Of a stretch of DNA of 64,000 nucleotides, positions 12,046-33,150 are shown one piece after another. Position 1 is the first letter of the stretch; each line of letters begins with the position of its first letter. The notes beneath the pieces are model-generated. The model was not told the origin of the DNA and did not search any database. It worked only from the letters and a program-made list of their open reading frames with translations. The translations under genes and the position numbers were made by a program. The stretch is taken from contig OY763325.1 of NCBI GenBank assembly GCA_963667315.1, positions 1,826,380-1,890,379 on the forward strand, written 5' to 3'. The DNA is from an uncultured Thermotogae bacterium (GTDB lineage Bacteria > Thermotogota > Thermotogae > MWEM01).

Positions 12046-12058
12046 CCGATAAACCCGC

Positions 12059-12321: not shown

Positions 12322-13080
12322 ATGCAAAATCAAAAAAAGCCCCATCTGACATCAGAAGACACCGCACTTTATCTTAAATACCTTAACGGTGATACGTTAA
12401 CCCGTACAGAAAACATTAAAATCTCAGAGGTACAGGATCATCTCGCAGACTGTGAAAGGTGTATGGAAAAGGTACAAAAAGTATTCTCCGAACGATCCGG
12501 CATCGCTAAAAGGAGCCATTCGGGATTTCAAAGCGATACGCTGATAAAGATGCATCACCTTACCGACATCCTCTTGAAAATAAAAGAGACGAAAACAGCC
12601 CGAAGCGATCGAAAAATAATTGACCGTCTCCTCAGCCTGACACCCTCGTTTGTACAAAAAGGCCTGCTTGTCGAACTGGTTGACCCGTCATCAAACAATA
12701 TAAAAAGCAGTACGCTTTTACCGGATCAGGCTGCTTCCCCCTTTATATATGAAACGCTCAAGCGGAAAACAAGAGGGGATGAATCCCCCTTCAAGATAGA
12801 AAACCGCCTTAAAGTCATCACTTCCGAAAAGATCGCCCATCGAACGGAGGTCCGTCTGAACTGCGAAGCAAAAACCCTCTGTGTCTTCCTCAAAAAAATC
12901 GGTGGTGAATACCTGCCAAGGATTGCACTGCTCAATCTCGAAGAAGTGGAACCTGCCGCAGAAAATCTCCATTTGAAGACACCCGTATACAACGGGGAAA
13001 AGGGACAGTTTGAATGCTGCTTCACGGATCTGAAATACGGAAAATATTTCCTGTTTATAGAACCTGATTTTTTCGTTTAA
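12322..13080 (+). CDS. zf-HC2/ZAS-type anti-sigma-like protein with C-terminal 'X' domain
   Basis: HLTSEDTALYLKYL...DHLADCERC (HxxxCxxC); C-terminal KVITSEKIAHRTEV...PRIAL...FTDLKYGKYFLFIEP shared with 15632, 16258, 19613 and 30037. Confidence 0.7.
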   Translation: MQNQKKPHLTSEDTALYLKYLNGDTLTRTENIKISEVQDHLADCERCMEKVQKVFSERSGIAKRSHSGFQSDTLIKMHHLTDILLKIKETKTARSDRKIIDRLLSLTPSFVQKGLLVELVDPSSNNIKSSTLLPDQAASPFIYETLKRKTRGDESPFKIENRLKVITSEKIAHRTEVRLNCEAKTLCVFLKKIGGEYLPRIALLNLEEVEPAAENLHLKTPVYNGEKGQFECCFTDLKYGKYFLFIEPDFFV

Positions 13081-13108
13081 TCATTTTCAATCGTTAAAGG
13101 GTGTCCAG

Positions 13109-15514
13109 ATGATCGAAAAAAAAAGCATTGCTGAACAGATAAAAGAAGCGGAGAATTTGACGCATTATGAAAAACTGAATGAGGCCCTTGCCGTCTATGG
13201 ACAGATAGACATGAACGTGGCAACCGATATGGATAAGGCCGTCATCCTCAACAATAAAGGTGTCATTTACAAACGAAAAGGAGACTATCAGAAAGCGGAG
13301 GATTATTACAACCAGGCACTTGCATACCACCTGAAAAACAATCGCGAGCCGCTGGAAGAATATCTGCTGACACTCAACAACCTTGCCCTGAATAAAAGAC
13401 TTTTCGGAAATTATACCAAAAGCGAAAAGATCTATCATGAAATTCTTACGATGGCAGAGCAGCATTTCGGAAGAGAATCTGAAATGTATTACAACAAACT
13501 CAACAATCTCGGTGCCCTTTACATGAAAATGGGACAGTTTGGGAAGGCTGAAGAGTGCTTCTGCGCCAGAAACAACTTCTTGGAGAAAACCGGAGAAACG
13601 GGAACCCTCAAATATGCACTGGCATTGTTCAACCTCGCCACATTGTACAAAGTATGGCGCAACAAGACCGATACAGCCATCGAATTGTACAGGCAATCCA
13701 TCAAACTCATGCAGGCAAACCATTTCACCAAGCATACCCATTATTACAGGACACATATCAACCTCTGCTTCGTGCTGATGGAGCGCGATGAGTTAACCGA
13801 AGCACGACTCATCCTGGAAAGCTTTCTCGCAGACACGAAAACCGAACAGGAAGCGTCATCACTCGATCACGCAAAATTCCTGCTTGAATATGCCAAACTG
13901 ATGAAAAAAATGCTCAAAAACGAAGAGGCGTTGCGTTCTATCGACACTGCCATCGAGATCATCGAAAGGACCCTGACGAAAGATATTCTTTTTTACAGCG
14001 AACTTCTGTCTGTCAAGGCGACTATTCTGTCAAACTTGAAGCGCTACGACGAAGCCTATACCAATCTGCTTCAATCCGTTAAGATTCAAAACCGTCTCTT
14101 CATCGATACCGCTTTCGCTTATGGTGAGTCCGACGCACTTGAATTTCTGAGGGCCATCAACAACGAATATAATCTCTTGCTCGATCTCATCAGAAGACAT
14201 TTCAGAGAAGAGGCTCAAAAAGTACATGATGCCTATCTCGCCATCATCCTGAGAAAGACCATCATCCTGGAGATGACGATGATACAGAATCTTTTGCTGA
14301 ACCGTTCAGGCGACAACGGGAAAACAAACGAAAAAGATTACATTCACGGGGATATCAAAGAACGTCTGAAACAACGGGATTACACCGCCATCATCGCCAA
14401 TCTTGATGATGACAGTCTCTTTTTCGATATCTATCACCTGGATCAGATGGACAGATACATCCTTTTCATCATCTCATCAGACGAAACGATCAGGCTGATC
14501 GACCTGGGAAAAGCTTCCTCTTTGAACAAGATGGTTGAAAAGTACAGGGAAAGTCTGACACATATCGAAAAGGGATGCTATCATCAGCTCTTGTCTACCG
14601 ATCTTTACAGACGCTTCTTTTCGACACTTCAGGGAAAATTCCCACGAAAGATAATCATCTCAACGGCCAACGAACTCTCACATCTTCCCTTTGACACCAT
14701 CAAAACAACCGATAACCGGTATCTGATTGAAGAAACGGATATTCGATACATCTCGACGATAAAAGATTTCGAAGCGGGAAAGAGAGGGGTGAGTGAAAAT
14801 GAGAAAACATTTTCACTCATCACGAATCCCGATTTCGATTATCCATCTGAAACACCGCCAGACAACACAGACGACTTTTACAAAAGACTGCCGGGAAGTC
14901 GGGTGGAAGGGGAGACGATCTGTCAGATACTGGGCGACTGGGAAGGAAGTCTCATACTCAACGATGCGAAAGCGGTTGACGCCAATTTCAAAAGACTCAC
15001 CGCTTCTCATATCGTTCATATCGCCACACACGGTTTCTTTTCAAAGAATCCGTACAATACCAATCCATTGAAAGACAGCGGGTTGATCTTCGCCGGGATC
15101 AACGCCATAAACGCAAAGCTTTCCCTAACCGAGACGGAAAAAGCCGAAATAGAAGACGGAAAAATGACGGCTTATGACCTAACGTTTCTCGATCTGAAAG
15201 GCACTGAACTCATCGTTCTATCCGCCTGTGAAACGGGACTCGGAAAGTATATCAACGGAAACGGCGTTATAGGGTTGCAGCGAGCCATTCTCCTTTCCGG
15301 TGTCCGAAAGATGATCATGACGCTCTGGAAGAGCGATGATGACTCCGCCATCAGCCTGATGAAAACCTTTTACAACCGATACCGTACTACATTTGATGCC
15401 GAAGCTTCTCTCAGGGAGGCAAAACTTCAGATGATAAAAGAAAACAGACAGCGGTTCGGAAATGAGGTCCCCGCCCTCTGGGGTGGCTATGTCTGTTTAT
15501 CGAGAAGTTTCTGA
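13109..15514 (+). CDS. TPR-CHAT caspase-like protease (copy 1)
   Basis: TPR repeats (LNNKGVIYKRKGDYQKAEDYY, LNNLGALYMKMGQFGKAE); CHAT dyad motifs HIATHG and LSACETG; LWGGYV end. Confidence 0.92.
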   Translation: MIEKKSIAEQIKEAENLTHYEKLNEALAVYGQIDMNVATDMDKAVILNNKGVIYKRKGDYQKAEDYYNQALAYHLKNNREPLEEYLLTLNNLALNKRLFGNYTKSEKIYHEILTMAEQHFGRESEMYYNKLNNLGALYMKMGQFGKAEECFCARNNFLEKTGETGTLKYALALFNLATLYKVWRNKTDTAIELYRQSIKLMQANHFTKHTHYYRTHINLCFVLMERDELTEARLILESFLADTKTEQEASSLDHAKFLLEYAKLMKKMLKNEEALRSIDTAIEIIERTLTKDILFYSELLSVKATILSNLKRYDEAYTNLLQSVKIQNRLFIDTAFAYGESDALEFLRAINNEYNLLLDLIRRHFREEAQKVHDAYLAIILRKTIILEMTMIQNLLLNRSGDNGKTNEKDYIHGDIKERLKQRDYTAIIANLDDDSLFFDIYHLDQMDRYILFIISSDETIRLIDLGKASSLNKMVEKYRESLTHIEKGCYHQLLSTDLYRRFFSTLQGKFPRKIIISTANELSHLPFDTIKTTDNRYLIEETDIRYISTIKDFEAGKRGVSENEKTFSLITNPDFDYPSETPPDNTDDFYKRLPGSRVEGETICQILGDWEGSLILNDAKAVDANFKRLTASHIVHIATHGFFSKNPYNTNPLKDSGLIFAGINAINAKLSLTETEKAEIEDGKMTAYDLTFLDLKGTELIVLSACETGLGKYINGNGVIGLQRAILLSGVRKMIMTLWKSDDDSAISLMKTFYNRYRTTFDAEASLREAKLQMIKENRQRFGNEVPALWGGYVCLSRSF

Positions 15515-15553
15515 AACACCGCTTCTCATTTCTGATAAATTTATGACATGATA

Positions 15554-15562
15554 TGTTATAAT
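15554..15562 (+). promoter_or_regulatory. Extended -10 element upstream of stand-alone X-domain gene 1
   Basis: TGTTATAAT; the same element is at 19571 before X gene 2, and TGATATAAT is at 12219 before the first island gene. Confidence 0.45.
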
Positions 15563-15631
15563 TATAAACGCGAGACAACTCATTTGAGAAACTGCAATTC
15601 GAAAAAAGACAAAAACAGCAAAGGAAGAACG

Positions 15632-16123
15632 ATGATTGAACAGGCGAAAGACAAGATGACACTTTCAGATTTTAATCCAAATGACCATTTAAACGATGTC
15701 AATACCCTTGTTATCCATATGAAATCCAAAAAGACAGGGGCAAGGATGCTAAGCGGGATAGACATGACATCACCGGATTCCGTGTTTGAATACGCCGTCA
15801 TTTCCCATAACACGAGAAGCGATGGCACTGAACAAAAGGTACAATCACTGATGAAAGTCATCACGTCCAAACGAATCGCCCATCGAACGGAAGTCATCCT
15901 TCTCGAAGATGAGCAGAAGATTATCGTCAGGATGAAAAAAGAACAATACGAAAGATTCCCGAGAATCGCCCTGATCCGGACGGATATCCCGTCGGAAGTC
16001 ATCGAAAGGGTCCAGACACAGGATCCGGATTACAAGGATTTCGGAGATGTTTTCGAATACGTCTTCGAAAACGTTGAACAGGGAAGTTATTACCTCTTCA
16101 TAGAACCGCTTTTTCTGCTTTGA
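15632..16123 (+). CDS. Stand-alone X-domain protein 1 (no zinc finger)
   Basis: KVITSKRIAHRTEV...PRIALIRTD...VEQGSYYLFIEP; paralog of 19613; start ATG 15632 after AGGAAG. Confidence 0.75.
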   Translation: MIEQAKDKMTLSDFNPNDHLNDVNTLVIHMKSKKTGARMLSGIDMTSPDSVFEYAVISHNTRSDGTEQKVQSLMKVITSKRIAHRTEVILLEDEQKIIVRMKKEQYERFPRIALIRTDIPSEVIERVQTQDPDYKDFGDVFEYVFENVEQGSYYLFIEPLFLL

Positions 16124-16257
16124 AAACGCTCCAAATACCTCTGATTGGATGCTGAAAAGATGAGAACCATGTTACAATCAAAGGCCTGAGGAACGGAAAA
16201 TCTCGTTCGCTTCGAATGCACCTATTATCGCATGAAGGTATTAAAATTGAGCCAAGG

Positions 16258-17004
16258 ATGGAAACTGTGCCGGAAAGACATTTAACAGACAAAAAGATAA
16301 CATACTATATCAGATATCTCTCGGAAACCGCAGGAGATTCTTTTGATACGAAAACGATTGAAGAAATTCAGACTCATCTTAACGATTGTGATCGCTGTAT
16401 GGAAAGAGTTCACAACAGATATGAGATGGCAGCAAAGGCAGAGAATACAAATTTCAGCGGCGACGTCGAAGAAGAACGTGCAAAAATTTTCGAAACGGCA
16501 AAAAAACTGAAAGAGCTTTCACTTTCGGAAACGGAAATGTCCATGATAGACAGCATCCTTGAAAACGGAGATGATCTGGATGACAACGCCGTGCATGTCC
16601 GCTTTAAAACCTTCCCGCTCGCCGACCGGCTGTACAGCCGACTCGGTATCCTGAAATATTCCGAACTGTTTGAATATGAAAAAATGTGCGACTGGTCACG
16701 TGGTGACGGCAAAAGCCCTGTCGAGGACAATTTCATGAAAGTCATCACATCCGAAGAGGTCAAAAACACCATGGAAATCGAACTCAACGAAACGGAAAGA
16801 AGCCTGAGTGTCAGACTCATCAACGAAGAACAGGACTTCGCCCCGAGAATTGCCATGCTCAGGATCGATGATCAATACGGCAAAGACAATCTGAGAATTG
16901 CCGATGTACTCTACGACGGCATGACCAACAGCTTTGAATTTAAATTCGAAGACCTTGAACGGGGAAATTATTTCGTCTTTATAGAACCAAATTTTCAGGT
17001 TTAA
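16258..17004 (+). CDS. zf-HC2/ZAS-type anti-sigma-like protein with X domain (copy 2)
   Basis: HLTDKKITYYIRYL...THLNDCDRC; C-terminal KVITSEEV...PRIAML...FEDLERGNYFVFIEP. Confidence 0.72.
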   Translation: METVPERHLTDKKITYYIRYLSETAGDSFDTKTIEEIQTHLNDCDRCMERVHNRYEMAAKAENTNFSGDVEEERAKIFETAKKLKELSLSETEMSMIDSILENGDDLDDNAVHVRFKTFPLADRLYSRLGILKYSELFEYEKMCDWSRGDGKSPVEDNFMKVITSEEVKNTMEIELNETERSLSVRLINEEQDFAPRIAMLRIDDQYGKDNLRIADVLYDGMTNSFEFKFEDLERGNYFVFIEPNFQV

Positions 17005-17087
17005 AAACAAAAACATCAAATGGGGCAGTGAAGATGACTGTCCCTTTTTTATATCTATATTATTGTTATCCCGGGGAGTGGTTGACG

Positions 17088-19508
17088 TTGGAAAATACCT
17101 ATATTGATGAGCAGATAAAGAAAGGAGAAACGCTAATCCATGATGATAAACTGGATGAAGCCCTGTCTTTATTTGAGATGATCGATAAACGTTCCGCAAG
17201 TGAGGTACAAAAGGCTGTTATATCGAATGATGTGGGTGTGATTTATAAGCGAAAAGGATTGTATAAGGAAGCGGAAAAAAAGTATCAATATGCGATAGAT
17301 GTGTATGAAAGAAATAATTGTGAGCCTGTTGATGAGTATATTCTTTCTTTGAATAATATTTCAGTTTTAAGAACAATATCAGGAGATTACATAAATGCAT
17401 TGAAAAGTTTCAATTTCCTCAAAACTCTGACTGAGAAAATGCTCGGAAAAGAAACAACAACATATTCTATCAGAATAAACAATATTGCTTCATGTTACTT
17501 AAGGTTGGGATATTATGAAAAAGCAGAACTATTATTTTTAGAATCGAAGGAAATAAGAGAAAAGATCTCAGGAAAAGAATCTAAACTATTTGTACAAAGT
17601 ATAGTAAACCTTGCAAACTTATACAACAAATGGGGCAAAACTGATATTGCTGTTTCTTATTATCTTGAAACAATCCAATTAATGGAATCAATCAATTTCA
17701 TAAATAATCCTCATTACAACAAAGCGTTAATAAATCTCTGTATTCTCCTAATAGAAAAAGGGAATTATGATGAAGCCAAGAGACTTCTTACCATTCAGTT
17801 TGAACACTTGAATCAATCAAAAAAACAACATACAATTGATTATGCACTCTTTCTCATGGAATATTCGAAACTCCTTAAAGAACTCAAAGAGTTTGGCTCA
17901 TCAAAACAAGCCATCAATGAAGCGTTAAAAATCGTAGAACAACAAGCGGGAAAGAAAAACCTTCAATATACCGAGATGCTTTCAACAAAGGCAAGTTTGA
18001 TGATTGAATTGAAGGAATACGATACAGCTTATGATTTACTCCTTAAAGCAGTCAGACTTCAGAATGAAATCTTTGTGAACTTTTCCTTCGGACAGAGCGA
18101 AAGTGATGCCCTTGAATTCCTTCGATGCATCAACAACGAATACAATCTGCTATTGTCAACCGTTTTGAACTATTTCAAAGACGATTCTGACAAGGTGCGG
18201 GAAACCTATCTGAACATCCTCCTGAGAAAGACCATCATCCTTGAGATGACGATGGTTCAGAACCTTCGACTCGGCAGGTATAAAGATTCAGAAGAAAACG
18301 GCGAAGGGTATATATATGAAGAGATGATCAAAAGACTCGGTGATACGGATTATGGGGAAATCCTCGGTCGTTTAAGGGAAAACAATGTCTTTCTGGATAT
18401 CTTTCATCTGGCACAAACGGACAGATACGTCATGTTCGTCCTTTCAAAGGACAAACCCGTCAGACTCATAGATCTGGGCAAAGCCTCTCAGCTGAACATT
18501 ACCCTCTCAAAATACCGTGACAGTCTGACGAACACCGAACAAAGGAAGTATCATCGTCTGTTGTCTGCCGACCTGTATCGCAGATTCTTCGGATTCCTCA
18601 ACGGGACCCTACCGGAAAAGCTCATCATCTCAACGGCAAATGAGATTTCACAGCTTCCCTTTGAAACGATCATCACGCCCGATCAATCCTATCTCATCGA
18701 AAAGACGATGATTCAGTATATCTCCACCCTGAAGGATTTTGAAGAGGAAACTCATACAAAGCTGCCAAAGACACTGTCATTAATTACCAATCCCAATTTC
18801 GATTATCCTTTAAATAACGAAACAAGCTCCTTTCAGAAAAGCACAGCAGATGCGGAAGAAGAAAAACAAATCTATAAAGAGCTCCCCGGCAGCTTCAAAG
18901 AAGATGAGATAATTAAAGCAATACTCAACGACTGGAACATCATCGAAAGACTTAAGGGAGACAATGCAACGGATTCAAAAGCTAAGAAGATAACAGGTGC
19001 TCGTATCATCCATATCGTCACCCACGGCTTTTTCAGAGATAATCCGTACAATACCAATCCTCTGAAGGACAATGGTGTTGTCCTTGCGGGTATCAATTCG
19101 CTTATCAGGGGGATAGAACTCAGTGAAGAGGAAGCAAAAAATATAGAAGACGCCGAACTGAGCGCTTACGATATGACCTTCATGAATCTGAAAGACACGG
19201 AACTCGTTGTTCTCTCCACCTGTGAAAGCGGACTTGGAAAAGTCGTTACAGGAAATGGCGTCATAGGATTGCAGAGAGCTGTGCTTGTTTCAGGTGCAAG
19301 GAAGATGATTATGACACTCTGGAACGTCTCCGACGCCTCAAGCCTGGAATTGATGAAACAATTTTACCGCCGTTACTCTGAATCATTTGATGTGGAAACA
19401 TCCCTCAGAGAGGCAAAACTGGCAATCATCAGAAAGAACAGAAAACAGTACGGGAATGATACACCTAGCCTCTGGGGCGGCTTTGTTTGTCTTGGGAGGA
19501 GTTTTTGA
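17088..19508 (+). CDS. TPR-CHAT caspase-like protease (copy 2)
   Basis: TTG start (LENTYIDEQ matches MENPYIQEQ of copies 3 and 4) after GGGGAG; TPRs; HIVTHG and LSTCESG motifs. Confidence 0.92.
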   Translation: MENTYIDEQIKKGETLIHDDKLDEALSLFEMIDKRSASEVQKAVISNDVGVIYKRKGLYKEAEKKYQYAIDVYERNNCEPVDEYILSLNNISVLRTISGDYINALKSFNFLKTLTEKMLGKETTTYSIRINNIASCYLRLGYYEKAELLFLESKEIREKISGKESKLFVQSIVNLANLYNKWGKTDIAVSYYLETIQLMESINFINNPHYNKALINLCILLIEKGNYDEAKRLLTIQFEHLNQSKKQHTIDYALFLMEYSKLLKELKEFGSSKQAINEALKIVEQQAGKKNLQYTEMLSTKASLMIELKEYDTAYDLLLKAVRLQNEIFVNFSFGQSESDALEFLRCINNEYNLLLSTVLNYFKDDSDKVRETYLNILLRKTIILEMTMVQNLRLGRYKDSEENGEGYIYEEMIKRLGDTDYGEILGRLRENNVFLDIFHLAQTDRYVMFVLSKDKPVRLIDLGKASQLNITLSKYRDSLTNTEQRKYHRLLSADLYRRFFGFLNGTLPEKLIISTANEISQLPFETIITPDQSYLIEKTMIQYISTLKDFEEETHTKLPKTLSLITNPNFDYPLNNETSSFQKSTADAEEEKQIYKELPGSFKEDEIIKAILNDWNIIERLKGDNATDSKAKKITGARIIHIVTHGFFRDNPYNTNPLKDNGVVLAGINSLIRGIELSEEEAKNIEDAELSAYDMTFMNLKDTELVVLSTCESGLGKVVTGNGVIGLQRAVLVSGARKMIMTLWNVSDASSLELMKQFYRRYSESFDVETSLREAKLAIIRKNRKQYGNDTPSLWGGFVCLGRSF

Positions 19509-19612: not shown

Positions 19613-20119
19613 ATGTTTAATAATCGAATAAAGAGGTACAGAATTTTGGTTGATCAAATAAAAAATAATACGATAGCTCCCTTTATAAACGATGTAAACA
19701 CACTCATCATCCATATGAAATCAAAAAAAGTTGGTTCAAGGTGCTCAAGTAGAATTGAGATGAGTTCATCTGAGTCTGTTTTTGATTATGTGACTATCTC
19801 TCGCAATACGAGAAGTTATGATAAAAAACGCGAGATTCAGTCATATCTCAACGTTATTACTTCCGATAGGATTAAACACAGAACGGAAGTCCAACTTCTT
19901 GAGGCTGAAAAAAGCATCATCGTTCGTATGAAGCGTGAAGAATATGAAAGATCACCAAGAATCGCCTTGATTCGAACCGACATTCGCCCCGAAGTAATAG
20001 AAAGAGTCCAGACAATGGATCCCGAATACAAAGATTTTGGAGATGTGTTTGAATACGTCTTTGATGATGTTGAAGAGGGAAGTTATTACCTCTTTATTGA
20101 ACCACTCTTTTTGTTTTGA
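19613..20119 (+). CDS. Stand-alone X-domain protein 2 (true start may be TTG 19646)
   Basis: NDVNTLIIHMKSKK...VITSDRIKHRTEV...PRIALIRTD...GSYYLFIEPLFL, highly similar to 15632. Confidence 0.75.
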   Translation: MFNNRIKRYRILVDQIKNNTIAPFINDVNTLIIHMKSKKVGSRCSSRIEMSSSESVFDYVTISRNTRSYDKKREIQSYLNVITSDRIKHRTEVQLLEAEKSIIVRMKREEYERSPRIALIRTDIRPEVIERVQTMDPEYKDFGDVFEYVFDDVEEGSYYLFIEPLFLF

Positions 20120-20301: not shown

Positions 20302-22565
20302 ATGGAAAATCCTTATATTCAGGAGCAAGTAGATCGAGCGAAAAAATAACTTCATGAAGAAAAACCGGAAAAGGCGCTTGTCATCTATGAGATGATTGAT
20401 CTTCTTGCTGCCCCTGAGATTCAGAAAGGTGTTGTTTTAAACGATATTGGATGGGGTTGTATAAGGAAGCTGAACAAAAATATAATAAAGTTTCAGAAAT
20501 TTATAAACAGAATAATTTTGAACCTCTTGAAAATTATATAGTGACATCTAATAATTCAGCTATCATATTACAGATACTAGGAGATTATTTTAAGGCAGAA
20601 AAAACATTTAAAAGAAATCTTGATAAAACCCATGAAAAGTATGGGAAAAAACTCCGAACTATATACAGTGAGAACAAATAACATTGGTTCTTTATTTTAT
20701 GAGATTGGGGATTTCATTAATGCCGAATGTTATTTTTTTAGAATCAAAAAAATCACAGAGATTCTTTTCGTTAAATTCTTAGTAAAATATATTCAGCTAT
20801 TAAATAATCTGTCAGATGCCTATAAACAACAAAAAGAATATTAAGAAGCTTTATTCTATTCAGAAAACACAGTAAATACTATGGAAGCTATAAAGTTTAC
20901 GAAAAACAAGTGCTATTTATAAGCATTAGAAAAATATTGTTGGTTATTAATAGAAACAAAAAGTTTTTCTCAAGCTACTAAATTATGTGCGAGAATAGAA
21001 ATACTATATACAAAATTTGATCATTATTCAGATTCAGGACAATAAAATTTCACTCTTCTATACGGATATTCTGCATGAAAAGGTTTTATCGTTATCTGAA
21101 AAAACAAAGATGAAGGATGTTTTCAAACTACCCTCGAGTCATTGAAAATAAAGAACAACATCTTTATCAATACCATTTTCACCTTCAACGAAAAACAAGC
21201 ACTTGAATTTTTGAGAATGATCAACAACGAATACAACAAACTTCTTTCTATCACAATTGACTATTTCCCACGATGATAACGAAAAAATTCGGGAAACCTA
21301 TCTGAATATCGTATTAAGTAAGACAATGATTCTGGAAATGACAATGATTCAAAATCGGCAGCTTGACAGGTATAAAAACTCGGATAATGCACATCAAAAA
21401 AGGTATATCCATGAGAACATCGTTGAAACGCTCAAACACAACGATTATTCCAAAATTATCACTCATTTGAAGGATAACAATGTTTTTCTGGATCTCTTCT
21501 ATCTGGATAAAACGGATAGATATGTGATGTTTGTTCTTTCTAAGCGTGAGCCAGTCAGATTAATATACTTCGGAAAAGGTACTGAACTTAATAGAACAAT
21601 GAAAAGAGAAAATTTCACCGAATGTTATCCGCAGATCTTTATCGCAGATTCTTCGGATTTCTCGATGAAAAAATACCGGAAAAGATCATCATCTCCACGT
21701 CAAATGAGATTTCACAACTTCCCTTTGAAACGCTTATAACACCGGATAATTTCTACCTTATCGAAAAAGCCACCGTTCAATATATCTCTACATTTAAAGA
21801 CTTTAACACTGAAATTGTATCCAAAACACAGAAAACACTTACGACCCGAATTTTGATTACCCTTTAAATCCGTCTACAAACCCTGATCCTGAAAACCCAG
21901 AGCAAGATGACGACAAAGGTTTATACAAAAGGCTCTCGGCAAGTAAGGTTGAAGGGGATAAGATAAGACTAATCCTGAAAGATTGGGAAATTTCAGAAAT
22001 ACTGGAAGGGGATAATGCAACTGATTTAAAAGTAAAGCAGATACCATCCAGTTACATCCTGCATATCTCATCACACGCTGTATACAGGGATAATAACAGT
22101 ACAAACAATATAAACCCGCTGAAAGACAGCGGTATTGTTCTTGCGGGTATTAATTCCCTCATTAAAGGAATAGAATTAAGCGAAGATGAAGCTAATGAAA
22201 TAGAAGATGCTGAACTGAATGCCTATGATATGACATTCATAGACCTCAAAAACACCGAACTGGTTGTTCTTTCTGCCTGCAACACAGGACTCGGCAAAAT
22301 AGTAAACGGAAACGGTGTCATAGGACTTCAAAGAGCCGTCCTGTTATCCGGGGCAAAGAAACTGATTATGTCACTCGGAGAAATCTCTGATACGGCAAGT
22401 ATGTTGTTGATGGAAAAATTTTACAGAAGATATCGGGAATCCCTTGATGTCGAAAAGTCTTTACGAGAGGCTAAACTTGCCATTATAAGGGAAAATATAA
22501 AGAAATATGGACATGCGGCTCCGTCCAGATGGGGAAGTTATGTCTGTTTAAGCAGGAGTTTTTAA
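20302..22565 (+). pseudogene. TPR-CHAT protease pseudogene (copy 3)
   Basis: ATG 20302 after GGAGG gives MENPYIQEQVDRAKK then TAA at 20347; homology resumes (LHEEKPEKALVIYEMID). Several stops and frameshifts split it into ORF fragments 20451, 20620, 21257, 21622 and 22230 (LSACNTGLG...RWGSYVCLSRSF). Confidence 0.9.
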
Positions 22566-25356: not shown

Positions 25357-25674
25357 ATGATTAAAAGAAAAATCGTACTTTTAGTAACAATTGCAACGCT
25401 GGTGTTCGCTGGTTTCTCAGCGGCAAATGATCGGATGACTTCTTCAGAGGAACTGTCTTTTTTCCTGGATTCCACGGAACAAAGCTGGTTCAGAGTTCAA
25501 CTGGAAATGTCTGAATTTGACTGGTCCATTCAACCATTAAGCGCTGGTTCAACTTCAACAACAGATCCCGCCAGCAACAATGGCGGTCCTGGCGGGGAAG
25601 ATGACTGGTGGGTTAGTCTACCCACGAGTGATTTAAATCTGTTTGCTCTTAATTTATCCTGGCCGATAAATTAA
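25357..25674 (+). CDS. Small secreted protein, unknown function (105 aa)
   Basis: GGAGG RBS; signal peptide MIKRKIVLLVTIATLVFAGFSAA; acidic Trp-rich mature part; followed by a terminator; a decayed duplicate lies downstream. Confidence 0.75.
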   Translation: MIKRKIVLLVTIATLVFAGFSAANDRMTSSEELSFFLDSTEQSWFRVQLEMSEFDWSIQPLSAGSTSTTDPASNNGGPGGEDDWWVSLPTSDLNLFALNLSWPIN

Positions 25675-26803: not shown

Positions 26804-27211
26804 ATGCTCACACAATTAAATGAAGAACAGAAAATGATTTATTTTATGTATTTACTAGGCATTGGATTAGAGTCTATTGACGCAAGAGATTTACAGAAAA
26901 TCGAGGAATTTTTATTCAAACACAAAGAATACTATGAGGACATCAAGAAAGAATTTCAGATTATCCAGAGATTATTTGAAGTAAAAATCAAAACTCTAGC
27001 TGAGGAAAATTTATCCTTTGAAAAAATGGATAGCTATGATAGAGAGGAGGTGACTATAATGTTTGACTATTGGAAAAATTCTCCTCCCCACTCTTCAAAT
27101 AAAGAAAAAGATTATATCATAATCAAGTGCCCTCTGGGTTATGAAGAAGATGATGATTGCTTAATTGTAAAAATCCCTAAAAAAAGAGTTGAAAAAAAAT
27201 TTACTGCATAA
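26804..27211 (+). CDS. Truncated anti-sigma-like protein with degenerate zinc site
   Basis: QLNEEQKMIYFMYLLGIGLESIDARDLQKIEEFLFKHKEYYE aligns to CLDDREKNIYFQYLSGINLKSIDAAELMRIEMHLFECKECYE of 30037, with H/C/C lost. Confidence 0.65.
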   Translation: MLTQLNEEQKMIYFMYLLGIGLESIDARDLQKIEEFLFKHKEYYEDIKKEFQIIQRLFEVKIKTLAEENLSFEKMDSYDREEVTIMFDYWKNSPPHSSNKEKDYIIIKCPLGYEEDDDCLIVKIPKKRVEKKFTA

Positions 27212-27426: not shown

Positions 27427-28665
27427 ATGAGAAAAAACGACTTAAGAAGTGATGATTTTGATCCCCATGAGAGTAAAGAGTATTTAATAATCTCATTGAG
27501 GGAACAATTTCTGAACAAATACTACAGATTATGGAGAAATAAGAATCAACAAGTATCAATACGGAATCTAAAAAAGATTTCTGCAAACAGATTCAAAACA
27601 GAGGCAGAGCAGAATCTTGCTTATACAAGGTTGGCACAGGATTTTGGTTTTGATGAAAAAGCTAGTGAAACAGAAAATACTCTTCAACTGACTAAAGATT
27701 TTGTTTATTACTTTGCCAATGATTTTTTCAAAACCGTTGTGTTAAGTTTGACGGACAAGCAAATGAAGAAATATTTTTTCGAGCTTGATGAAAGAAAGGA
27801 AAAAATATTCGATCCGGTGAAAAACAAACTTTTATTGTTTTTCACCGCGTTGGGAAGCAATTCTGCTTTAGCATGTTTAATAAAAGATAATTCAAGCATG
27901 ATTAAAGGCGTTTTCATGAAGCAATCAAGTAAACATGTAAAAAATGAAGTGATGGATGTAATCACTCATTATTGGGCTCTGTTGAGAGAAATCAGTAAGA
28001 CTTTCAAATATTATTTCCCCCAAAAACCTATGGGATGGTTCATTAAATGTATCAAAACTGAGCTGTTTAAGAAGAATTACATCATTGAGATTAATCCTAA
28101 TTCTTCTCAGATAGATGAATCCACAGAAGATCCAATAGAGATAAATGAAAATATTAATGTCCGTAAAAACGGATTCGGGAGACAGAATCCAGACTCAATT
28201 GCATTCTGGCAACTTATCGGAGAAGAATTTTTTCGGATAATTTTGTTAGATACAAACTATGGATATGTCTGGAAAAGGCTTAATTATGTATTGAAACTTT
28301 TTGATTTTAAACCTAGTGACGTGCTAATAGATTATCATGACAAAACAATAGCCGATATAGTTGAAAAGATTAAAGAGTGGTTAAGTGATATTCTTTCATT
28401 GGATGATGATGAATTAAAAATACTTTTTGAGGTAATCGAGGTTGAGATTCATAAAACCATCCCCGATACCGTTCCAATTAAAGATCATAAAACGTGGAAA
28501 ACATTAAAAGAATTTCAAAATTCATCTATTCCAATCAAAGATTTGCGCTTAACCCTCTTCGTTCAGGATGAAAATCCAACAATTCTTTCTGGCTGGAATG
28601 CCAGACTTGCGAAACGTTTAAAAAAGTTTCTCAAAAATTCCGGTTATGATATAAACGACTTTTGA
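27427..28665 (+). CDS. Divergent sigma-70-like protein (paralog 1)
   Basis: Degenerate region-2-like segment (ALACLIKDNSSMIKGVF...DVITHYWALL...PMGWFIKCIK); shares W-x6-kl..f.p..i and the terminal LSxW..rl.krL motif with 30929 and 32080. Confidence 0.5.
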   Translation: MRKNDLRSDDFDPHESKEYLIISLREQFLNKYYRLWRNKNQQVSIRNLKKISANRFKTEAEQNLAYTRLAQDFGFDEKASETENTLQLTKDFVYYFANDFFKTVVLSLTDKQMKKYFFELDERKEKIFDPVKNKLLLFFTALGSNSALACLIKDNSSMIKGVFMKQSSKHVKNEVMDVITHYWALLREISKTFKYYFPQKPMGWFIKCIKTELFKKNYIIEINPNSSQIDESTEDPIEINENINVRKNGFGRQNPDSIAFWQLIGEEFFRIILLDTNYGYVWKRLNYVLKLFDFKPSDVLIDYHDKTIADIVEKIKEWLSDILSLDDDELKILFEVIEVEIHKTIPDTVPIKDHKTWKTLKEFQNSSIPIKDLRLTLFVQDENPTILSGWNARLAKRLKKFLKNSGYDINDF

Positions 28666-28710: not shown

Positions 28711-28762
28711 CCAAGATAACATTTCTTTATTTTTCATTAAATAATGTAATACCAAGGCCCTC

Positions 28763-28998: not shown

Positions 28999-29712
28999 AT
29001 GAACGGAAAACAATTACTAAGCAATTCGATTTATATTTTCATTGATTTTAAGTTTGGAGAATTTCTTGAGAAAGCAGGTTTGAAACGAAACAACTTACTC
29101 GTCAATACTAATAATTTTCTTAAAAAGGTCGAAAAAGTCGATGGTTTTTATTTCCCAAAAGCTAGTTTAATTGACCTGAACAGCTGGATGCCCACAGTCA
29201 CTGAAAAGAGCAAGTTTAATCATTTTGCCGCATTACAAATTTTGGGATTTCAAAACCTCGAAAATTATTTCATTGATCTTGAAACGGAGAAAGAAATCCT
29301 AAACACTGTATTTCAAGGGAATTCTGGCCCCCCTTGGTGGATTATTTGCTATATTGGTTATGCTTGTAAATTTTCATCACAACTAATCGTAGAACATTTA
29401 AAAGGGAAAAAACTTGAGGAGGTTTACCGGAAGTTTAGGGGTGGGGTCAACCAGGATATTTTCACCCTTTTTGGTAATGATTCAAAAGAATTATTCTCGA
29501 AACTCGAATCAGATCTCAATCAAACACTTGAGTACAATTTAAGCGTAAATAATTTAGAAAAGAAGAAGCATTTTTATCCGTTCAAAGATACCCGTTCAGG
29601 TGATATAAATTTTGATATTTTATTCCAAAGTGAAGAACCATCAGATTTGATCATTGAGTGGATTTTTAACCTCGCCTATAATGCATCAAAGATATATATT
29701 AAAACACATTAA
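28999..29712 (+). CDS. Short paralog of the sigma-like proteins lacking the region-2 segment
   Basis: QLLSNSIYIFIDFKF ~ ELLSRSIYMEFRLKY (32080); PPWWIICYIGYACKFSSQLIVEHL ~ YPWQMICFLLKIIGYRPKSIVDQF; PSDLIIEW ~ PSKSVSEW. Confidence 0.55.
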   Translation: MNGKQLLSNSIYIFIDFKFGEFLEKAGLKRNNLLVNTNNFLKKVEKVDGFYFPKASLIDLNSWMPTVTEKSKFNHFAALQILGFQNLENYFIDLETEKEILNTVFQGNSGPPWWIICYIGYACKFSSQLIVEHLKGKKLEEVYRKFRGGVNQDIFTLFGNDSKELFSKLESDLNQTLEYNLSVNNLEKKKHFYPFKDTRSGDINFDILFQSEEPSDLIIEWIFNLAYNASKIYIKTH

Positions 29713-30036: not shown

Positions 30037-30735
30037 GTGACTTGTATGAATGAAAACTGTTTGGATGATCGTGAGAAAAACATATACTTCCAGTATTTGT
30101 CAGGAATTAATTTAAAATCTATAGATGCTGCAGAACTTATGCGGATAGAAATGCATCTATTTGAATGCAAAGAATGCTATGAACAGGTAAAAAAAGAATA
30201 TAAACTCATTAAATTTCTTCAGAACTGGTCATTTGAAGGACACGCTCAAACAGTTAAACTTTTCAATTTCATTGAAAATTTGAGAAATTACTACGAAGAG
30301 GAAAATGACGAAAAGAAAAAAAATTTAATTGAGAAATTACTTCAATCTGACTTTGATTATCGCGGAAGAGGTTTTGATGAATTTCTGAATAAACGTAAAG
30401 AAAAAGAGACTTTTAAATTCAAATATTTCTTTACAATAGAAGTGGAAAAAACCAAAGAAAATTCACAAAAACTAAAAATTTTAGATGAAAAAAAATCGGC
30501 TGAAGAATTCGTCTTATGCTATAAAGATAATTATCTCTTGATCAAATCTAGAACTGACAATTTTGCTGGAACCGATACACCTTTTGGGATATTGTCTTCT
30601 GTCAACAAAGAGAATAATTATCTAAAATTAAAGCAATTTACTCCAACAGACGAAAGTCCTCAATTATCCTTTTTATGTCTAACTCCTGGAAGATATAATC
30701 TGTATATTGAGGAGAATATTTCAGCTAGCAAATAG
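30037..30735 (+). CDS. zf-HC2/ZAS-type anti-sigma-like protein with X-like C-terminus (copy 3)
   Basis: MHLFECKECYE (HxxxCxxC); C-terminal SFLCLTPGRYNLYIEE resembles F.DL..G.Y.lfIE. Start may be ATG 30046. Confidence 0.7.
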   Translation: MTCMNENCLDDREKNIYFQYLSGINLKSIDAAELMRIEMHLFECKECYEQVKKEYKLIKFLQNWSFEGHAQTVKLFNFIENLRNYYEEENDEKKKNLIEKLLQSDFDYRGRGFDEFLNKRKEKETFKFKYFFTIEVEKTKENSQKLKILDEKKSAEEFVLCYKDNYLLIKSRTDNFAGTDTPFGILSSVNKENNYLKLKQFTPTDESPQLSFLCLTPGRYNLYIEENISASK

Positions 30736-30928: not shown

Positions 30929-31996
30929 ATGAACATAGAAATGCGGAAGTATTTACTTCAAAGCTTTATCAAGTTTTTCATTTTAAATCATTCTGAACTT
31001 CTAAGGCGTTTTTCAGATGACGAAGAAATTGTTAATCTTTGTTTTAAAGAGGTTTTAAGTGTTCTCAGCGATCAGGAAATAGAAGTTTTATGCAATGATC
31101 CACAAAAAAGATTTGATTTACTGAAGCTCGAAAGAGTTAACGATAGGATATATTTCGAGTTAATAAAACAAGGGAATCATAATGCGATTTCTGACTTAAT
31201 GAAATCCTATACACCTCAGATCAGATTCTATTTCTATAGTTTACTCGGAAAAAAATTCATTTACTGCAACAGAAATATTGTGAATGATGTAATTGATTCT
31301 GAATGGTGTAAACTTTGGCTTTACAGAGAGAATTATGATTACTCAATTGCCAGTTTCGTTACTTATTTCATCCGCATAGTCTATAATGCTTTGCGCGAAA
31401 TTGAAAGAAAACTTTCTAATGATGCTCAGGTTATTATATGGCTTTCTTCCAAGAAGAAGACAGAAAATGTGTTTATTGATGATCCTATTGAGTATCTTGG
31501 TTTTAGAAATTGCGCATTATGTCCACGGACACCAGAAAATATATGTGTGGATTACCATGAAGGACAAATTGTTTTAGGGTATTTATTTAAAACGAGATTA
31601 GCACCTGTTTGGAAAATCATTTTATATGGAATTATGATCAGTAATTACAAGATCGGTTATATTGTTCAAGAGCTTTCTGAACATAATATGTATCAGTTGT
31701 TGAGTATTTTGAAAACAGAAATCTCAAACACTCTTCCTGAATCTGTTGACTATTTATCATGGCTCTTCAGAGAAATACATGAAGATATTGAACAAACACC
31801 ATCTGATTTATTTTCAAAATTCGGGGGCAAATCAGATAAGAAAATAGCACAATATACCCATATTCCTGTGAAACATATAAAACTGAAAGATTTGATCAAG
31901 GGGGAACAGACTTTAAGTAACTGGAAGTTTGCAATAAAAAGGACATTAAGAAAGCATCGTCTACGTCAAATTATCGAAGAAAAAGTTTTTTTTTAG
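30929..31996 (+). CDS. Divergent sigma-70 (ECF-like) protein (paralog 2)
   Basis: Region-2-like NAISDLMKSYTPQIRFYF...DVIDSEWCKLWLYRENYDYSIASFVTYFIRIVYNALRE. Confidence 0.6.
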   Translation: MNIEMRKYLLQSFIKFFILNHSELLRRFSDDEEIVNLCFKEVLSVLSDQEIEVLCNDPQKRFDLLKLERVNDRIYFELIKQGNHNAISDLMKSYTPQIRFYFYSLLGKKFIYCNRNIVNDVIDSEWCKLWLYRENYDYSIASFVTYFIRIVYNALREIERKLSNDAQVIIWLSSKKKTENVFIDDPIEYLGFRNCALCPRTPENICVDYHEGQIVLGYLFKTRLAPVWKIILYGIMISNYKIGYIVQELSEHNMYQLLSILKTEISNTLPESVDYLSWLFREIHEDIEQTPSDLFSKFGGKSDKKIAQYTHIPVKHIKLKDLIKGEQTLSNWKFAIKRTLRKHRLRQIIEEKVFF

Positions 31997-32079
31997 ACAA
32001 GGAATTACGTTTTTAATGTCTTTTCCTGTACTATCCCTCCATTTGTATGGCGGGGTAGTACAAAAAGGGGGGCGTAACA

Positions 32080-33150
32080 ATGAATAGCAATTCTGATTGT
32101 AAAAGAGATAAATATACTGCAAGAGAACTTCTTTCGCGAAGTATTTATATGGAGTTCAGACTGAAATACAAAAAGCTATTGACACCATCAGCACAAACTG
32201 AGGAAGAAAAAAAGAATATTATGTCTTCACTAAGAGAAGTTGTAGAAACTATAGTCAGGCAACTCAGCGACAAAGAAGTTAATTATTACATAGATAACAT
32301 CGACGATAGAAAGAAATTAGCTAATCGAATTAGGGATTATGCGCTTCTTTCCCTAGGAAGTGAAAATAAGGTTTTGGCAACAACACTTCTGATCAAACTC
32401 TACTCTGGATTTATCAGAAAGGTAGCTTTGCATACTTATTTAGATTATGAAATATCATTGAACTCGAATTCTTTCGAAGAAGTTGTTACTGATGTAATCT
32501 CAAAACTCTGGACAATTCGAAACACATATAATCCAATAAAAGGTACGTTTTCAACTTGGCTGGCAGCAATAATCCGAAATAATATCAGACACAATCAACT
32601 TGTTAGAAATAGAGTTTCATTAATTAGTTTGGATAAAAATTCAAATGATTCTGATTTTGATGATTTTGAAAATTATATTTATCAAATAGAAAGTCAAAAA
32701 TTGTTCACCTCTCCCGATGTGATTTTTGCAATAGAGTATTACGCGGAATCTGTTTTTATTGAGATATTTAAGGAACCAGTATCCTATCCGTGGCAGATGA
32801 TTTGTTTTTTGTTAAAAATAATAGGATACAGACCAAAATCTATTGTTGATCAATTCTCTGACTTAACACTCAGCCAGATTACAAAAAGTTTAAAAACAGA
32901 CTTTAAAATAATCAGTCGGTTTGAAAATGCTTTTATTGATAAATCTTTTGAACCATTTGAATCTAATTTAGAAATTAAGTTAAGTTCCGAGAATTCCCCA
33001 ACTTTTTATTACAAAAATCTTAAACTTTTTATCGGAAAAAGAACTGGTGACATTGAGTTGAATAATTTTTTTGGTAAATCACCTTCAAAATCTGTCAGTG
33101 AGTGGGCTTTAAAAGTCAGTCATAAATTGAGTTTAAAATTTGCAGAATAA
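32080..33150 (+). CDS. Divergent sigma-70 (ECF-like) protein (paralog 3)
   Basis: Clearest region 2: LLIKLYSGFIRKVA...FEEVVTDVISKLWTIRNTYNPIKGTFSTWLAAIIRNNIR. Confidence 0.7.
   Translation: MNSNSDCKRDKYTARELLSRSIYMEFRLKYKKLLTPSAQTEEEKKNIMSSLREVVETIVRQLSDKEVNYYIDNIDDRKKLANRIRDYALLSLGSENKVLATTLLIKLYSGFIRKVALHTYLDYEISLNSNSFEEVVTDVISKLWTIRNTYNPIKGTFSTWLAAIIRNNIRHNQLVRNRVSLISLDKNSNDSDFDDFENYIYQIESQKLFTSPDVIFAIEYYAESVFIEIFKEPVSYPWQMICFLLKIIGYRPKSIVDQFSDLTLSQITKSLKTDFKIISRFENAFIDKSFEPFESNLEIKLSSENSPTFYYKNLKLFIGKRTGDIELNNFFGKSPSKSVSEWALKVSHKLSLKFAE

Follow-up and report, generated by a model that had tools for sequence, protein, structure and literature searches.

Does the ~21-kb island at positions 12322 to 33150 of the window (the whole 64-kb stretch of DNA analyzed here, from a Thermotogota-like bacterium) encode a switch in which caspase-like proteases cut zinc anti-sigma proteins and so release dedicated sigma factors? 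All of the island genes named in the initial annotation were present at their coordinates on the + strand, as are all features described below. The gene classes listed there were likewise found, with two amendments: the fourth TPR-CHAT gene is a pseudogene and one of the four sigma-like genes lacks sigma2. The island thus contains four TPR-CHAT genes, one of them frameshifted and the others intact, and genes for four proteins of the HxxxCxxC type, of which one is degenerate. It also holds the four sigma-like genes and two genes that encode, on its own, the C-terminal beta-sandwich domain of the HxxxCxxC proteins (here designated X). The explanation that we favor, tentatively and at a little under an even chance, is that these represent a cytoplasmic sigma/anti-sigma switch that is gated by a protease and present in several paralogous copies. 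The absence of Cas genes stated in the initial annotation was borne out, since no CRISPR array or cas gene was found within the 64-kb window, and neither was a tRNA or an Rfam RNA. No known defense-system model in PADLOC was matched by the island, the only matches being weak ones, two of TPR models in TPR-CHAT1 and one of BrxL in X1. Nothing ties the island to the role in defense or differentiation that had been suggested, and the proposed analogy to HetF and PatU3 found no sequence support at the island.

TPR-CHAT1 (13109..15514), TPR-CHAT2 (17028..19508), and TPR-CHAT4 (22652..25123) matched Pfam CHAT with E values of 1e-51, 1e-51, and 2e-48, respectively, in addition to TPR models (TPR_12, 4e-26, in TPR-CHAT1), and the His/Cys dyad is intact in each (IATHG/LSACETG, IVTHG/LSTCESG, and IISHG/LSACNTG, respectively), so that the protease class named at the outset is real. 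Translation of TPR-CHAT2 probably begins downstream of the GTG given as its start. A tblastn frame map of the TPR-CHAT3 pseudogene (20302..22565) showed at least five frame changes, with the last fragment matching CHAT at 1e-27; in L002, a related strain, the orthologue is annotated as a full-length gene encoding 806 aa, of which only the last 827 nt lie inside the fetched locus. No signal peptide or transmembrane segment was predicted in TPR-CHAT1. Judged from their sequences, the TPR-CHATs are caspase-like cysteine proteases of the cytoplasm, with no specific sequence similarity to Csx29. A small protein with a signal peptide is encoded at 25357..25674 and is 39% identical to positions 2978 to 3358 of locus L006; a Thermotogota metagenome-assembled genome keeps a counterpart downstream of its CHAT gene, and the membership of this secreted protein in the system is uncertain.

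The HxxxCxxC proteins, here called ZAS-X, combine an N-terminal three-helix zinc domain of the pattern [H/C]-x32-H-x3-C-x2-C with a C-terminal X domain. In ZAS-X1 (12322..13080; HLADCERC), the zinc motif H8...H40xxxC44xxC47 is followed by a helical linker and X. ZAS-X2 (16216..17004; HLNDCDRC) is a second anti-sigma-like protein, and ZAS-X3 (30037..30735; C...HLFECKEC) has a divergent X domain. The degenerate copy (26804..27211) reads FLFKHKEY, has lost the zinc ligands and lacks X; it is 53% identical to the N terminus of ZAS-X3 and is conserved in L002. HxxxCxxC and the upstream H/C ligand were conserved in 13 aligned N-terminal domains, and this conservation was seen across 16 ZAS-bearing sequences, bearing out the ZAS-like assignment of the initial annotation. 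The profile searches called for there gave a mixed outcome: CHAT was detected, Sigma70_r2 passed its cut-off only in sig4 among the four window genes, and zf-HC2 stayed below the Pfam cut-off in every copy (17.2 bits in ZAS-X3, with a cut-off of 22.2). Nevertheless, zf-HC2 was the only recurrent Pfam match in the ZAS-X family (7 of 13 members; best E value, 5.7e-4), and weak matches to RsrA (also below the cut-off), DdvA, and RsiW were located at the zinc motif. The AF2 model of ZAS-X1, of moderate confidence (pLDDT 67, from an alignment of 7 sequences), shows three N-terminal helices and a beta-sandwich. Residue R151 lies in a low-confidence loop of this model (segment 144-162, pLDDT<50) and does not vary in alignment A5 and hardly varies in A11, whereas Lys or other residues replace this Arg in the ZAS-X3 clade. 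No transmembrane segment was predicted in ZAS-X and no similarity to Csx30 was found. ZAS-X therefore appears to be a soluble anti-sigma-like protein carrying a new beta-sandwich domain.

The stand-alone X proteins X1 (15548..16123, 33 nt after TPR-CHAT1; no Pfam family) and X2 (19613..20119) share 65% identity with each other and 31 to 38% with the C-terminal halves of ZAS-X1 and ZAS-X2. Two ZAS-X/CHAT/X triplets are present in the window, with intergenic gaps of 28 to 33 nt (TPR-CHAT1 starts 28 nt after ZAS-X1).

The sigma-like proteins align with each other at 19 to 24% identity. Sig1 (27427..28665; 412 aa) has degenerate sigma2 motifs behind a long N-terminal extension, sig2 (28999..29712) comprises only the C-terminal half of the family, without sigma2, and has an intact orthologue in L002, and sig3 (30929..31996; 355 aa) gave weak matches to ECF sigma factors. 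Sig4 (32080..33150; 356 aa) matched Sigma70_r2 with 30 bits (cut-off, 24) and TIGR02937 with 7.6e-8 and 32.2 bits, below the 42.9-bit cut-off of the latter. The family is very rare (95 cluster representatives among 1.84 billion), and 47 of 65 members matched Pfam Sigma70_r2 (best E value, 3e-16). In hhalign, the family aligned with canonical ECF sigmas over sigma2 and the linker (97.6% probability; E value, 2.6e-12). In the AF2 model of sig4 (pLDDT 87), a clear sigma2 follows an extension of four helices at the N terminus, and the C-terminal half is helical; sigma2 alone superimposed on 5or5 with a TMt of 0.75 and an rmsd of 2.2 A, and the best Foldseek matches were nearly all sigma factors, with ECF sigmas at the top. 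The sigma class of the initial annotation is hence confirmed by the Pfam and hhalign results, and on these profile matches the sigma-like proteins carry a real sigma-70 region 2.

Region 4 was not detectable in the family by Pfam, hhalign, or hmmsearch, and promoter binding by the sigma-like proteins can therefore be called only putative. This raises the question of whether they are transcription factors at all. Having lost a canonical sigma4, they could instead be adaptors, substrates, or regulators of the CHATs, or toxin-like effectors, with ZAS-X proteins as their inhibitors in a purely protein-level system. The recurrence of intact ORFs with only the sigma C-terminal half and the long conserved N- and C-terminal extensions of the family would also fit such a role. 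However, sigma2 retains the hallmark core- and -10-binding pattern D..Q/..W...F.TWL..I..N, Foldseek aligned 200 to 220 columns with two-domain ECF sigmas at a probability of 0.9 to 1.0, and helices 212-278 of the AF2 model show the length pattern of sigma4. We consider a nontranscriptional role improbable; that the sigma-like protein is a divergent ECF-like sigma with a noncanonical helical C-terminal half is well supported.

Whether the three gene classes belong together was addressed in other loci. Outside the lineage of the window, each of 8 loci (L001, L005/9/10, L011, L013-16, L018, L019, L022, and L023) has ZAS-X directly downstream of a sigma-like gene, in many cases with the two genes overlapping, and the pairing of sigma and ZAS-X is well supported. 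In L019 and L022, the order is sigma, ZAS-X, TPR-CHAT, with ZAS-X and CHAT overlapping; in L008, CHAT is divergent from ZAS-X. The co-location elsewhere, the absence of which had been named as a refuting outcome, was thus found in operons with overlapping genes on unrelated metagenome contigs. Several loci have no CHAT beside the pair: an FGE-sulfatase gene is next in L001, L013, and L016, a response regulator and a HAMP kinase follow in L018, and WD40-caspases or FGE-sulfatase proteins take the CHAT position in other loci. It is the sigma/ZAS-X pair that forms the conserved core, and CHAT need not be next to it.

Such an invariant core with varying neighbors (CHAT, C14 caspases, FGE-sulfatase, PEGA, and PDZ-like secreted proteins) would be expected if sigma/ZAS-X were an ordinary soluble module of the RsrA/ChrR type, switched by its own zinc-thiol chemistry or by ligand sensing in the X domain, with TPR-CHAT, WD40-caspase, FGE-sulfatase, PEGA, and small secreted proteins being outputs of the regulon and not the input. 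Many neighbors are secreted proteins or lipoproteins and therefore belong to a compartment other than that of the cytoplasmic ZAS-X, and ZAS-X shares with ChrR the layout of an anti-sigma domain followed by a C-terminal sensor domain. Nevertheless, the TPR-CHATs are cytoplasmic and overlap ZAS-X in an operon downstream of sigma, which fits a coregulator better than a distal target, and, on inspection by eye, housekeeping-type extended -10 boxes and no shared ECF-type motif precede the sigma operons. The fusion of a ZAS domain with TPR-CHAT in DdvA moreover speaks for CHAT action on the anti-sigma side and is an independent "Rosetta-stone" argument that the two are functionally linked (PMC11506125). 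We regard the regulon explanation as somewhat unlikely.

The right flank of the island is 97.5% identical in nucleotide sequence to those of L002 and L004, whereas the island proteins are 44 to 74% identical or unrelated. The many divergent paralogues, and alleles that differ so strongly between otherwise nearly identical strains, suggest that diversity is under selection, as it is in immune or conflict loci. The island occupies a recombination hot spot where sequence identity falls off sharply and GC is low, its content varies from strain to strain, and the CHAT-linked ZAS-X1 and ZAS-X2 are >10 kb away from the sigma genes, leaving the CHAT and sigma blocks physically apart in the window. A hypervariable integration site could thus have gathered CHAT paralogues and separate, functionally uncoupled sigma/anti-sigma modules largely by chance. 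This is very improbable, given that the same three classes recur in overlapping-gene operons on contigs of 52% versus 34% GC with different flanks, and that the X domain, besides being fused to ZAS, is also encoded directly beside CHAT genes.

In the protease-gated switch that we favor, soluble ZAS-X would hold the divergent ECF-like sigma inactive, its N-terminal zinc domain binding the sigma, which is well supported. The ~450-residue TPR array of the cytoplasmic TPR-CHAT would be the sensor and, when it is triggered, we infer that CHAT cuts ZAS-X. The most likely cut site would be the loop with R151, which is exposed and of low confidence in the X beta-sandwich; in parallel fashion, Csx29 cuts Csx30 at a flexible loop of its C-terminal domain. 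Housekeeping proteases would then clear the leftover ZAS fragment, and the freed sigma would direct RNA polymerase to its regulon. More speculatively, the stand-alone X proteins may be decoy or competitor substrates or adaptors, and proteins with only the sigma C-terminal half might modulate the sigma/ZAS-X pair.

Among known systems, RsrA and ChrR (with SigR and SigE) are soluble cytoplasmic HxxxCxxC anti-sigmas encoded beside their sigma, as ZAS-X is a cytoplasmic HxxxCxxC protein encoded next to a sigma-like gene, and ChrR also bears a C-terminal sensor domain. What controls them is thiol oxidation or singlet oxygen and not a dedicated protease, and SigR and SigE are canonical ECFs with sigma2 and sigma4. 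In Myxococcus xanthus, DdvA, the partner of ECF sigma DdvS, is one transmembrane polypeptide with a ZAS domain fused to a periplasmic TPR-CHAT with an incomplete active site, and it needs intramembrane proteolysis by RseP (PMC11506125). The island resembles DdvA-DdvS in having a CHCC/HHCC zinc anti-sigma domain, a TPR-CHAT caspase-like module, a dedicated ECF-type sigma, a narrow distribution, and CHAT proteolysis of the anti-sigma as the proposed trigger. However, its ZAS protein and TPR-CHAT are separate, cytoplasmic, and without transmembrane segments, its anti-sigma bears the new beta-sandwich domain, its sigma has no recognizable region 4, and no CBASS or CRISPR regulon is near. In the type III-E Craspase (Cas7-11-Csx29, Csx30, and CASP-sigma), Csx29 cleaves Csx30, relieving CASP-sigma (PMC10028731). 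Both systems have a cytoplasmic TPR-CHAT, a two-domain sigma inhibitor, and an ECF-type sigma output, and in both (predicted for the island) the N-terminal part of the inhibitor binds sigma while its C-terminal domain carries the cut flexible loop. The island system, unlike Craspase, is multicopy and hypervariable, and, with Cas7-11, crRNA, and array all absent from the 64 kb, RNA-guided activation is excluded. CalpL, a cA4-activated Lon-SAVED protease linked to type III CRISPR, cleaves the anti-sigma CalpT and releases the ECF sigma CalpS (10.1101/2024.05.08.593092). The island shares the three-part protease/anti-sigma/sigma cassette and sigma release by anti-sigma cleavage but has TPR-CHAT in place of Lon-SAVED, a different anti-sigma fold, and no CRISPR link. 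The switch favored here would be a variant of the known Csx29-Csx30-CASP-sigma, CalpL/CalpT/CalpS, and DdvA/DdvS switches, with unfused components and no CRISPR.

The island is an uninterrupted run of co-oriented genes on the + strand (window positions 12322 to 33150), and the initial annotation described these genes accurately: all gene classes were located, the catalytic dyads are intact in three of the four CHATs, and no CRISPR or cas feature is present in the 64 kb. It opens with two triplets, each made up of a putative zinc anti-sigma protein with a C-terminal beta-sandwich domain X (ZAS-X), a caspase-like TPR-CHAT protease, and a stand-alone X protein: ZAS-X1 (12322 to 13080), TPR-CHAT1 (13109 to 15514), and X1 (15548 to 16123), and then ZAS-X2 (16216 to 17004), TPR-CHAT2 (17028 to 19508), and X2 (19613 to 20119). 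Because the gaps inside both triplets are only 28 to 33 nt, the triplets look like operons. They are followed by TPR-CHAT3 (20302 to 22565), a decayed pseudogene with at least 5 frame changes, TPR-CHAT4 (22652 to 25123), a small secreted ORF with a signal peptide (25357 to 25674), and a degenerate ZAS copy (26804 to 27211). The run ends with the sigma-like genes sig1 (27427 to 28665), sig2 (28999 to 29712), sig3 (30929 to 31996), and sig4 (32080 to 33150), with ZAS-X3 (30037 to 30735) lying between sig2 and sig3.

The island paralogues are judged to be old; amino acid identities are 40 to 47% among the CHATs, 21 to 31% among the ZAS-X proteins, and 22 to 24% among the sigma-like proteins. Hydrophobic segments are absent from the island proteins (highest 19-residue Kyte-Doolittle mean, ≤1.62), and the set is therefore predicted to be cytoplasmic. 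The GC content is about 44 to 49% in the flanks versus 31 to 38% in the right half of the island. We found no CRISPR array, cas gene, tRNA, or Rfam RNA (including CRISPR repeats) in the 64-kb window, and the sole tandem repeat in the window scan was a 29-bp unit in 1.9 copies.

The secreted protein encoded at 25357 to 25674, directly 3' of the last TPR-CHAT gene, is ~100 amino acids long and carries a GGPGGEDD motif; a counterpart with 39% identity occupies the same position in a Thermotogota metagenome-assembled genome (MAG; L006, 2978 to 3358). It is followed by an AT-rich stretch of 1.1 kb (25675 to 26803) that contains only ORFs of ≤55 amino acids and has no Rfam match. Extended −10 boxes of the housekeeping type (TGnTAtAAT) were seen 5' of the island operons (12046 to 12321, 19509 to 19612, 20120 to 20301, 22566 to 22651, and 28666 to 28998) and 5' of sigma operons elsewhere (L019, 9823 to 10000; L022, 1 to 228). 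Inspection of the upstream regions of the island and related operons by eye, which was not systematic, revealed no common ECF-type promoter motif.

The initial annotation counted four TPR-CHAT genes, three of them with intact His/Cys motifs, and this count stands. The three intact proteins match the Pfam CHAT family (PF12770; E values of 1e-51, 1e-51, and 2e-48), have N-terminal TPR arrays, and retain the motifs of the catalytic His-Cys dyad (THG/SHG and SAC/STC). Single-sequence and profile searches of the PDB with the CHAT proteins retrieved TPR proteins only and did not link them specifically to Csx29, DdvA, or separase.

The HxxxCxxC motif is present in all three ZAS-X proteins, and when the N-terminal domains of 13 homologues are aligned, H40, C44, and C47 never vary. 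Some 32 residues before the motif, nearly all ZAS homologues also keep a His or Cys, which completes a four-ligand ZAS signature; the degenerate copy lacks both the motif and the upstream ligand. No copy in the window reached the zf-HC2 cut-off of 22.2 bits (best, 17.2 bits). This was the sole recurrent Pfam family for the ZAS domains, matching 7 of the 13 homologues at an E value of ≤0.1 (best, 5.7e-4), all below the cut-off. The RsrA model TIGR03988 scored 14 to 16 bits with the ZAS-X proteins (cut-off, 62.5), and a PDB profile search gave weak matches at the motif to DdvA (E value, 0.12) and RsiW (E value, 0.37). A word-indexed homology search with ZAS-X1 returned a single match. The AlphaFold2 (AF2) model of ZAS-X1, which was built from a shallow alignment of 7 sequences and has a pLDDT of 67, consists of three N-terminal helices (residues 11 to 21, 28 to 43, and 45 to 62; pLDDT, about 78 to 85), a helical linker, and a C-terminal beta-sandwich; Foldseek found no significant match to this model.

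The X beta-sandwich domain has no relative in Pfam or the PDB. ZAS and X are separable modules, since X stands alone in X1 and X2 and a related MAG has ZAS lacking X. An arginine within the motif [TAS]-R-[GSN] (R151 in ZAS-X1) is invariant or nearly so among X domains, and in the AF2 model it is located in a loop predicted to be disordered (residues 144 to 162).

Among the sigma-like proteins, sig4 is the only window copy above the cut-off for Pfam Sigma70_r2 (PF04542; 30 bits, cut-off 24), sig1 and sig3 match sigma-70 region 2 weakly, and sig2 has no region 2. Weak matches of sig3 and sig4 to many NCBIfam ECF sigma models are likewise confined to region 2. A word-indexed search with the four proteins matched only the window's own proteins. 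When 1.84 billion cluster representatives were scanned in full with HMMER, 95 relatives emerged at an E value of ≤1e-3, and the family is thus very rare. Sigma70_r2 was matched by 47 of 65 family members (best E value, 3e-16), and hhalign aligned the family to canonical ECF sigmas with 97.6% probability (E value, 2.6e-12) over sigma2 and the linker only. No window copy matched Pfam region 4 (r4 or r4_2), a single family member of the 65 matched Sigma70_r4_2 weakly, and neither local hhalign nor hmmsearch detected a sigma4 signal in the C-terminal half of the family.

The AF2 model of sig4 (pLDDT, 87) comprises four N-terminal helices (residues 14 to 94), a sigma2-like bundle (98 to 185), a disordered linker (188 to 210), and eight more helices, of which those in residues 212 to 278 follow a long/short/short/long pattern like that of sigma4; the conserved tail beyond them ends in FFGxxPxxxISDWxxxVxxRLKK. 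In Foldseek searches of the PDB and a viral library, the best matches to sig4 were almost all sigma factors, with ECF sigmas on top, at probabilities of 0.8 to 1.0 and a best E value of only 0.014. Two-domain ECF sigmas aligned over 200 to 220 columns (probability, 0.9 to 1.0; E values above 0.01), and the sigma2 domain alone gave a TMt of 0.75 and an rmsd of 2.2 Å. Judged from these sequence and model comparisons, the sigma-like proteins constitute a true sigma2-bearing family derived from ECF sigmas, in which the half that would bind the −35 element has either diverged strongly or been replaced. It is quite improbable that proteins with this region 2 signal, even though they lack a recognizable region 4, have a non-transcriptional role. 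Intact ORFs for the sigma C-terminal half without sigma2 were observed in the window (28999 to 29712; sig2), in L002 (6832 to 7542) and L004 (110 to 724), the contigs of two near-identical strains, and in L007 (16273 to 17058 and 19348 to 19935). These ORFs are kept between strains as intact genes with 51% identity and are for this reason probably functional.

In eight of the eight loci outside the window's lineage that include upstream DNA (L001, L005/9/10, L011, L013-16, L018, L019, L022, and L023), a sigma-like gene immediately precedes ZAS-X, and the two often overlap. From gene order and domain identity, the sigma-like protein and ZAS-X very probably form a sigma/anti-sigma pair. The initial annotation had listed a lack of co-location of the three gene classes elsewhere among the findings that would count against its reading, but they are co-located: in L019 (52% GC) and L022 (34% GC), TPR-CHAT comes next and overlaps ZAS-X, resulting in a compact sigma→ZAS-X→TPR-CHAT operon. 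The reading is thereby supported in part, as to its components and their co-location. In L008, the CHAT gene is divergent from ZAS-X. With such operons in two loci of different GC content, a fortuitous co-location of CHAT and sigma/anti-sigma genes is very improbable. No CRISPR features were found in L019 and L005, and no similar loci were found in phage records, plasmid records, or viral contigs.

The other loci contain secreted WD40- or PPC-caspases (Peptidase_C14), FGE-sulfatase lipoproteins, PEGA proteins, and small PDZ-like secreted proteins, and in L018 a two-component system takes the place of the caspase/FGE neighbors. The caspase/FGE-sulfatase neighborhood recurs beside sigma/ZAS-X pairs in other organisms. 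The main alternative to a protease-gated pair makes the caspases and FGE proteins the regulon of the sigma factor and has ZAS-X itself do the sensing. The neighbors vary and many are secreted, as this alternative would have it, but the TPR-CHATs are cytoplasmic and are placed in the sigma/ZAS-X operon, and we consider it somewhat unlikely. Large WD40/PPC Peptidase_C14 caspases and FGE-sulfatase lipoproteins flank sigma/ZAS-X in L005 (2906 to 5905 and 14668 to 17475), L011 (599 to 3733), and L019 (2202 to 9115), the caspases of L019 and L011 and one of the two in L005 being secreted. Several unrelated loci encode small secreted proteins of 150 to 180 amino acids with a PDZ-like "GDxI" motif directly 5' of the sigma-like gene (L005, 5982 to 6428, 7809 to 8255, and 8380 to 8916; L011, 3782 to 4922; L013, 32 to 574; and L016, 3 to 545), and two of the L005 copies are 98.6% identical.

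The strain contigs L002 (10980 to 17544) and L004 (4332 to 10096) are 97.5% identical to the window at the nucleotide level rightwards from position 33459, over genes for fumarase, a nitrilase-family protein, a radical SAM protein, an MCP, and pyridoxamine kinase. To the left of this position the identity drops abruptly, to 65 to 72% in L002 and to an undetectable level in L004. L002 retains the gene order of the window with proteins 44 to 74% identical, and its CHAT3 is annotated as full length. At the same site, L004 carries other sigma-like genes and a ZAS-X gene whose products are only 23 to 32% identical to those of the window. In the Thermotogota MAG contig DAINPP010000027.1, the flank proteins are 80 to 94% identical to those of the window, and the site is occupied by X, a histidine kinase, one TPR-CHAT, and the small secreted ORF, as well as by alternating sigma-like, sigma-C-half, ZAS-only, and X genes. 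Between the M20 peptidase and fumarase genes there is thus a hot spot that is hypervariable at the strain level. That alleles should diverge to such an extreme in genomes elsewhere 97.5% identical is indicative of strong diversifying pressure.

An archaeal host, raised by weak MCH and DUF2115 matches in the window, was rejected because the flanks are bacterial in content (Opp transporter, MCP, and split fumarase) and because Thermotogota MAGs are the closest genomes; the source of the window is thus a Thermotogota-related bacterium. A PemK-family toxin pair is found just past the pyridoxamine kinase gene in the related strains (L002, 16953 to 17402; L004, 10106 to 11438), L004 also has an IS605 OrfB/Cas12f-like TnpB gene, and the window contains part of the sequence of this region (39310 to 39591). 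Farther along, two large proteins of 687 and 1,052 amino acids are encoded on the − strand (44781 to 50283), both with weak ZmpA-like matches, the former with GLUG repeats and the latter with an M26-N-like match below the cut-off. Four tandem paralogues of about 700 to 730 amino acids (52342 to 61338) each carry a C-terminal HD_5/HD (HD-GYP-type) domain.

We tentatively propose, at a little less than even confidence, that proteolysis by TPR-CHAT would gate the sigma/ZAS-X pair, on the grounds of the operons in which genes overlap, the recurrence of ZAS-X/CHAT/X triplets, the preserved catalytic dyads, and three published precedents. In DdvA, a ZAS domain is fused to TPR-CHAT and self-cleavage has been proposed (PMC11506125). 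Csx30 binds CASP-sigma with its N-terminal domain and is cut by Csx29 at a flexible loop of its C-terminal domain (PMC10028731), and CalpL cuts the anti-sigma CalpT, releasing CalpS (10.1101/2024.05.08.593092). ZAS-X closely parallels Csx30 in having a (putatively) sigma-binding N-terminal domain and a C-terminal domain with an exposed loop, and by this layout the candidate cut site would be the invariant Arg loop of X.

Allelic hyperdiversity makes a defense role plausible, but no defense-system model supports it: a search against PADLOC-DB v2 gave weak generic matches only, two TPR models to CHAT1 (E values, 1.5e-4 and 5.4e-3) and BrxL to X1 (E value, 3.9e-3). The divergence of alleles at one chromosomal site makes a role in conflict or immunity testable. 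In a bolder version, which we regard as unlikely, the island would be a free-standing, CRISPR-independent surveillance module in which polymorphic cytoplasmic TPR-CHATs sense an invader or damage cue directly via their TPR arrays, cut the soluble zinc anti-sigma at the conserved Arg loop of the new beta-sandwich domain, and free a sigma factor of a new class whose C-terminal DNA-binding half is non-canonical. If this were true, such cassettes could be the ancestral module for the signaling arms of Craspase (Csx29/Csx30/CASP-sigma) and DdvA.

To our knowledge, a caspase-like protease has so far been linked to the release of an ECF sigma only in the accessory arm of type III CRISPR and in one fused Myxococcus membrane protein. 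A soluble, unfused, CRISPR-free version would make the TPR-CHAT/anti-sigma/sigma logic an autonomous signaling module, and a simple three-protein system would allow asking what activates bacterial TPR-CHAT. CHAT, caspases, and Thermotogota are all absent from the ECF classification paper, and our literature search retrieved no description of an unfused CHAT/zf-HC2/sigma system.

The logic of the island is that of Craspase, CalpL/T/S, and DdvA/DdvS. However, Cas7-11 (gRAMP), an array, and Csx30/Csx31 beside TPR-CHAT, the features of type III-E Craspase, are missing, and the ZAS-X and X profiles matched no Csx30 chain in the PDB. CalpL/T/S relies on a Lon-SAVED protease, which the island lacks. 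DdvA combines ZAS, a transmembrane helix, and a periplasmic TPR-CHAT in one polypeptide, whereas the island encodes ZAS and TPR-CHAT in separate genes, and none of its proteins has a hydrophobic segment. These missing defining features, together with the lack of a description in the literature searched, set the island apart as a new version. The families that it would add are a sigma with sigma2 but without a recognizable sigma4, the ZAS-X anti-sigma, and the X beta-sandwich domain. Built from these three undescribed protein families, the system is a version of the known switches that is soluble, unfused, and CRISPR-free, occurs in multiple copies, and is hypervariable.
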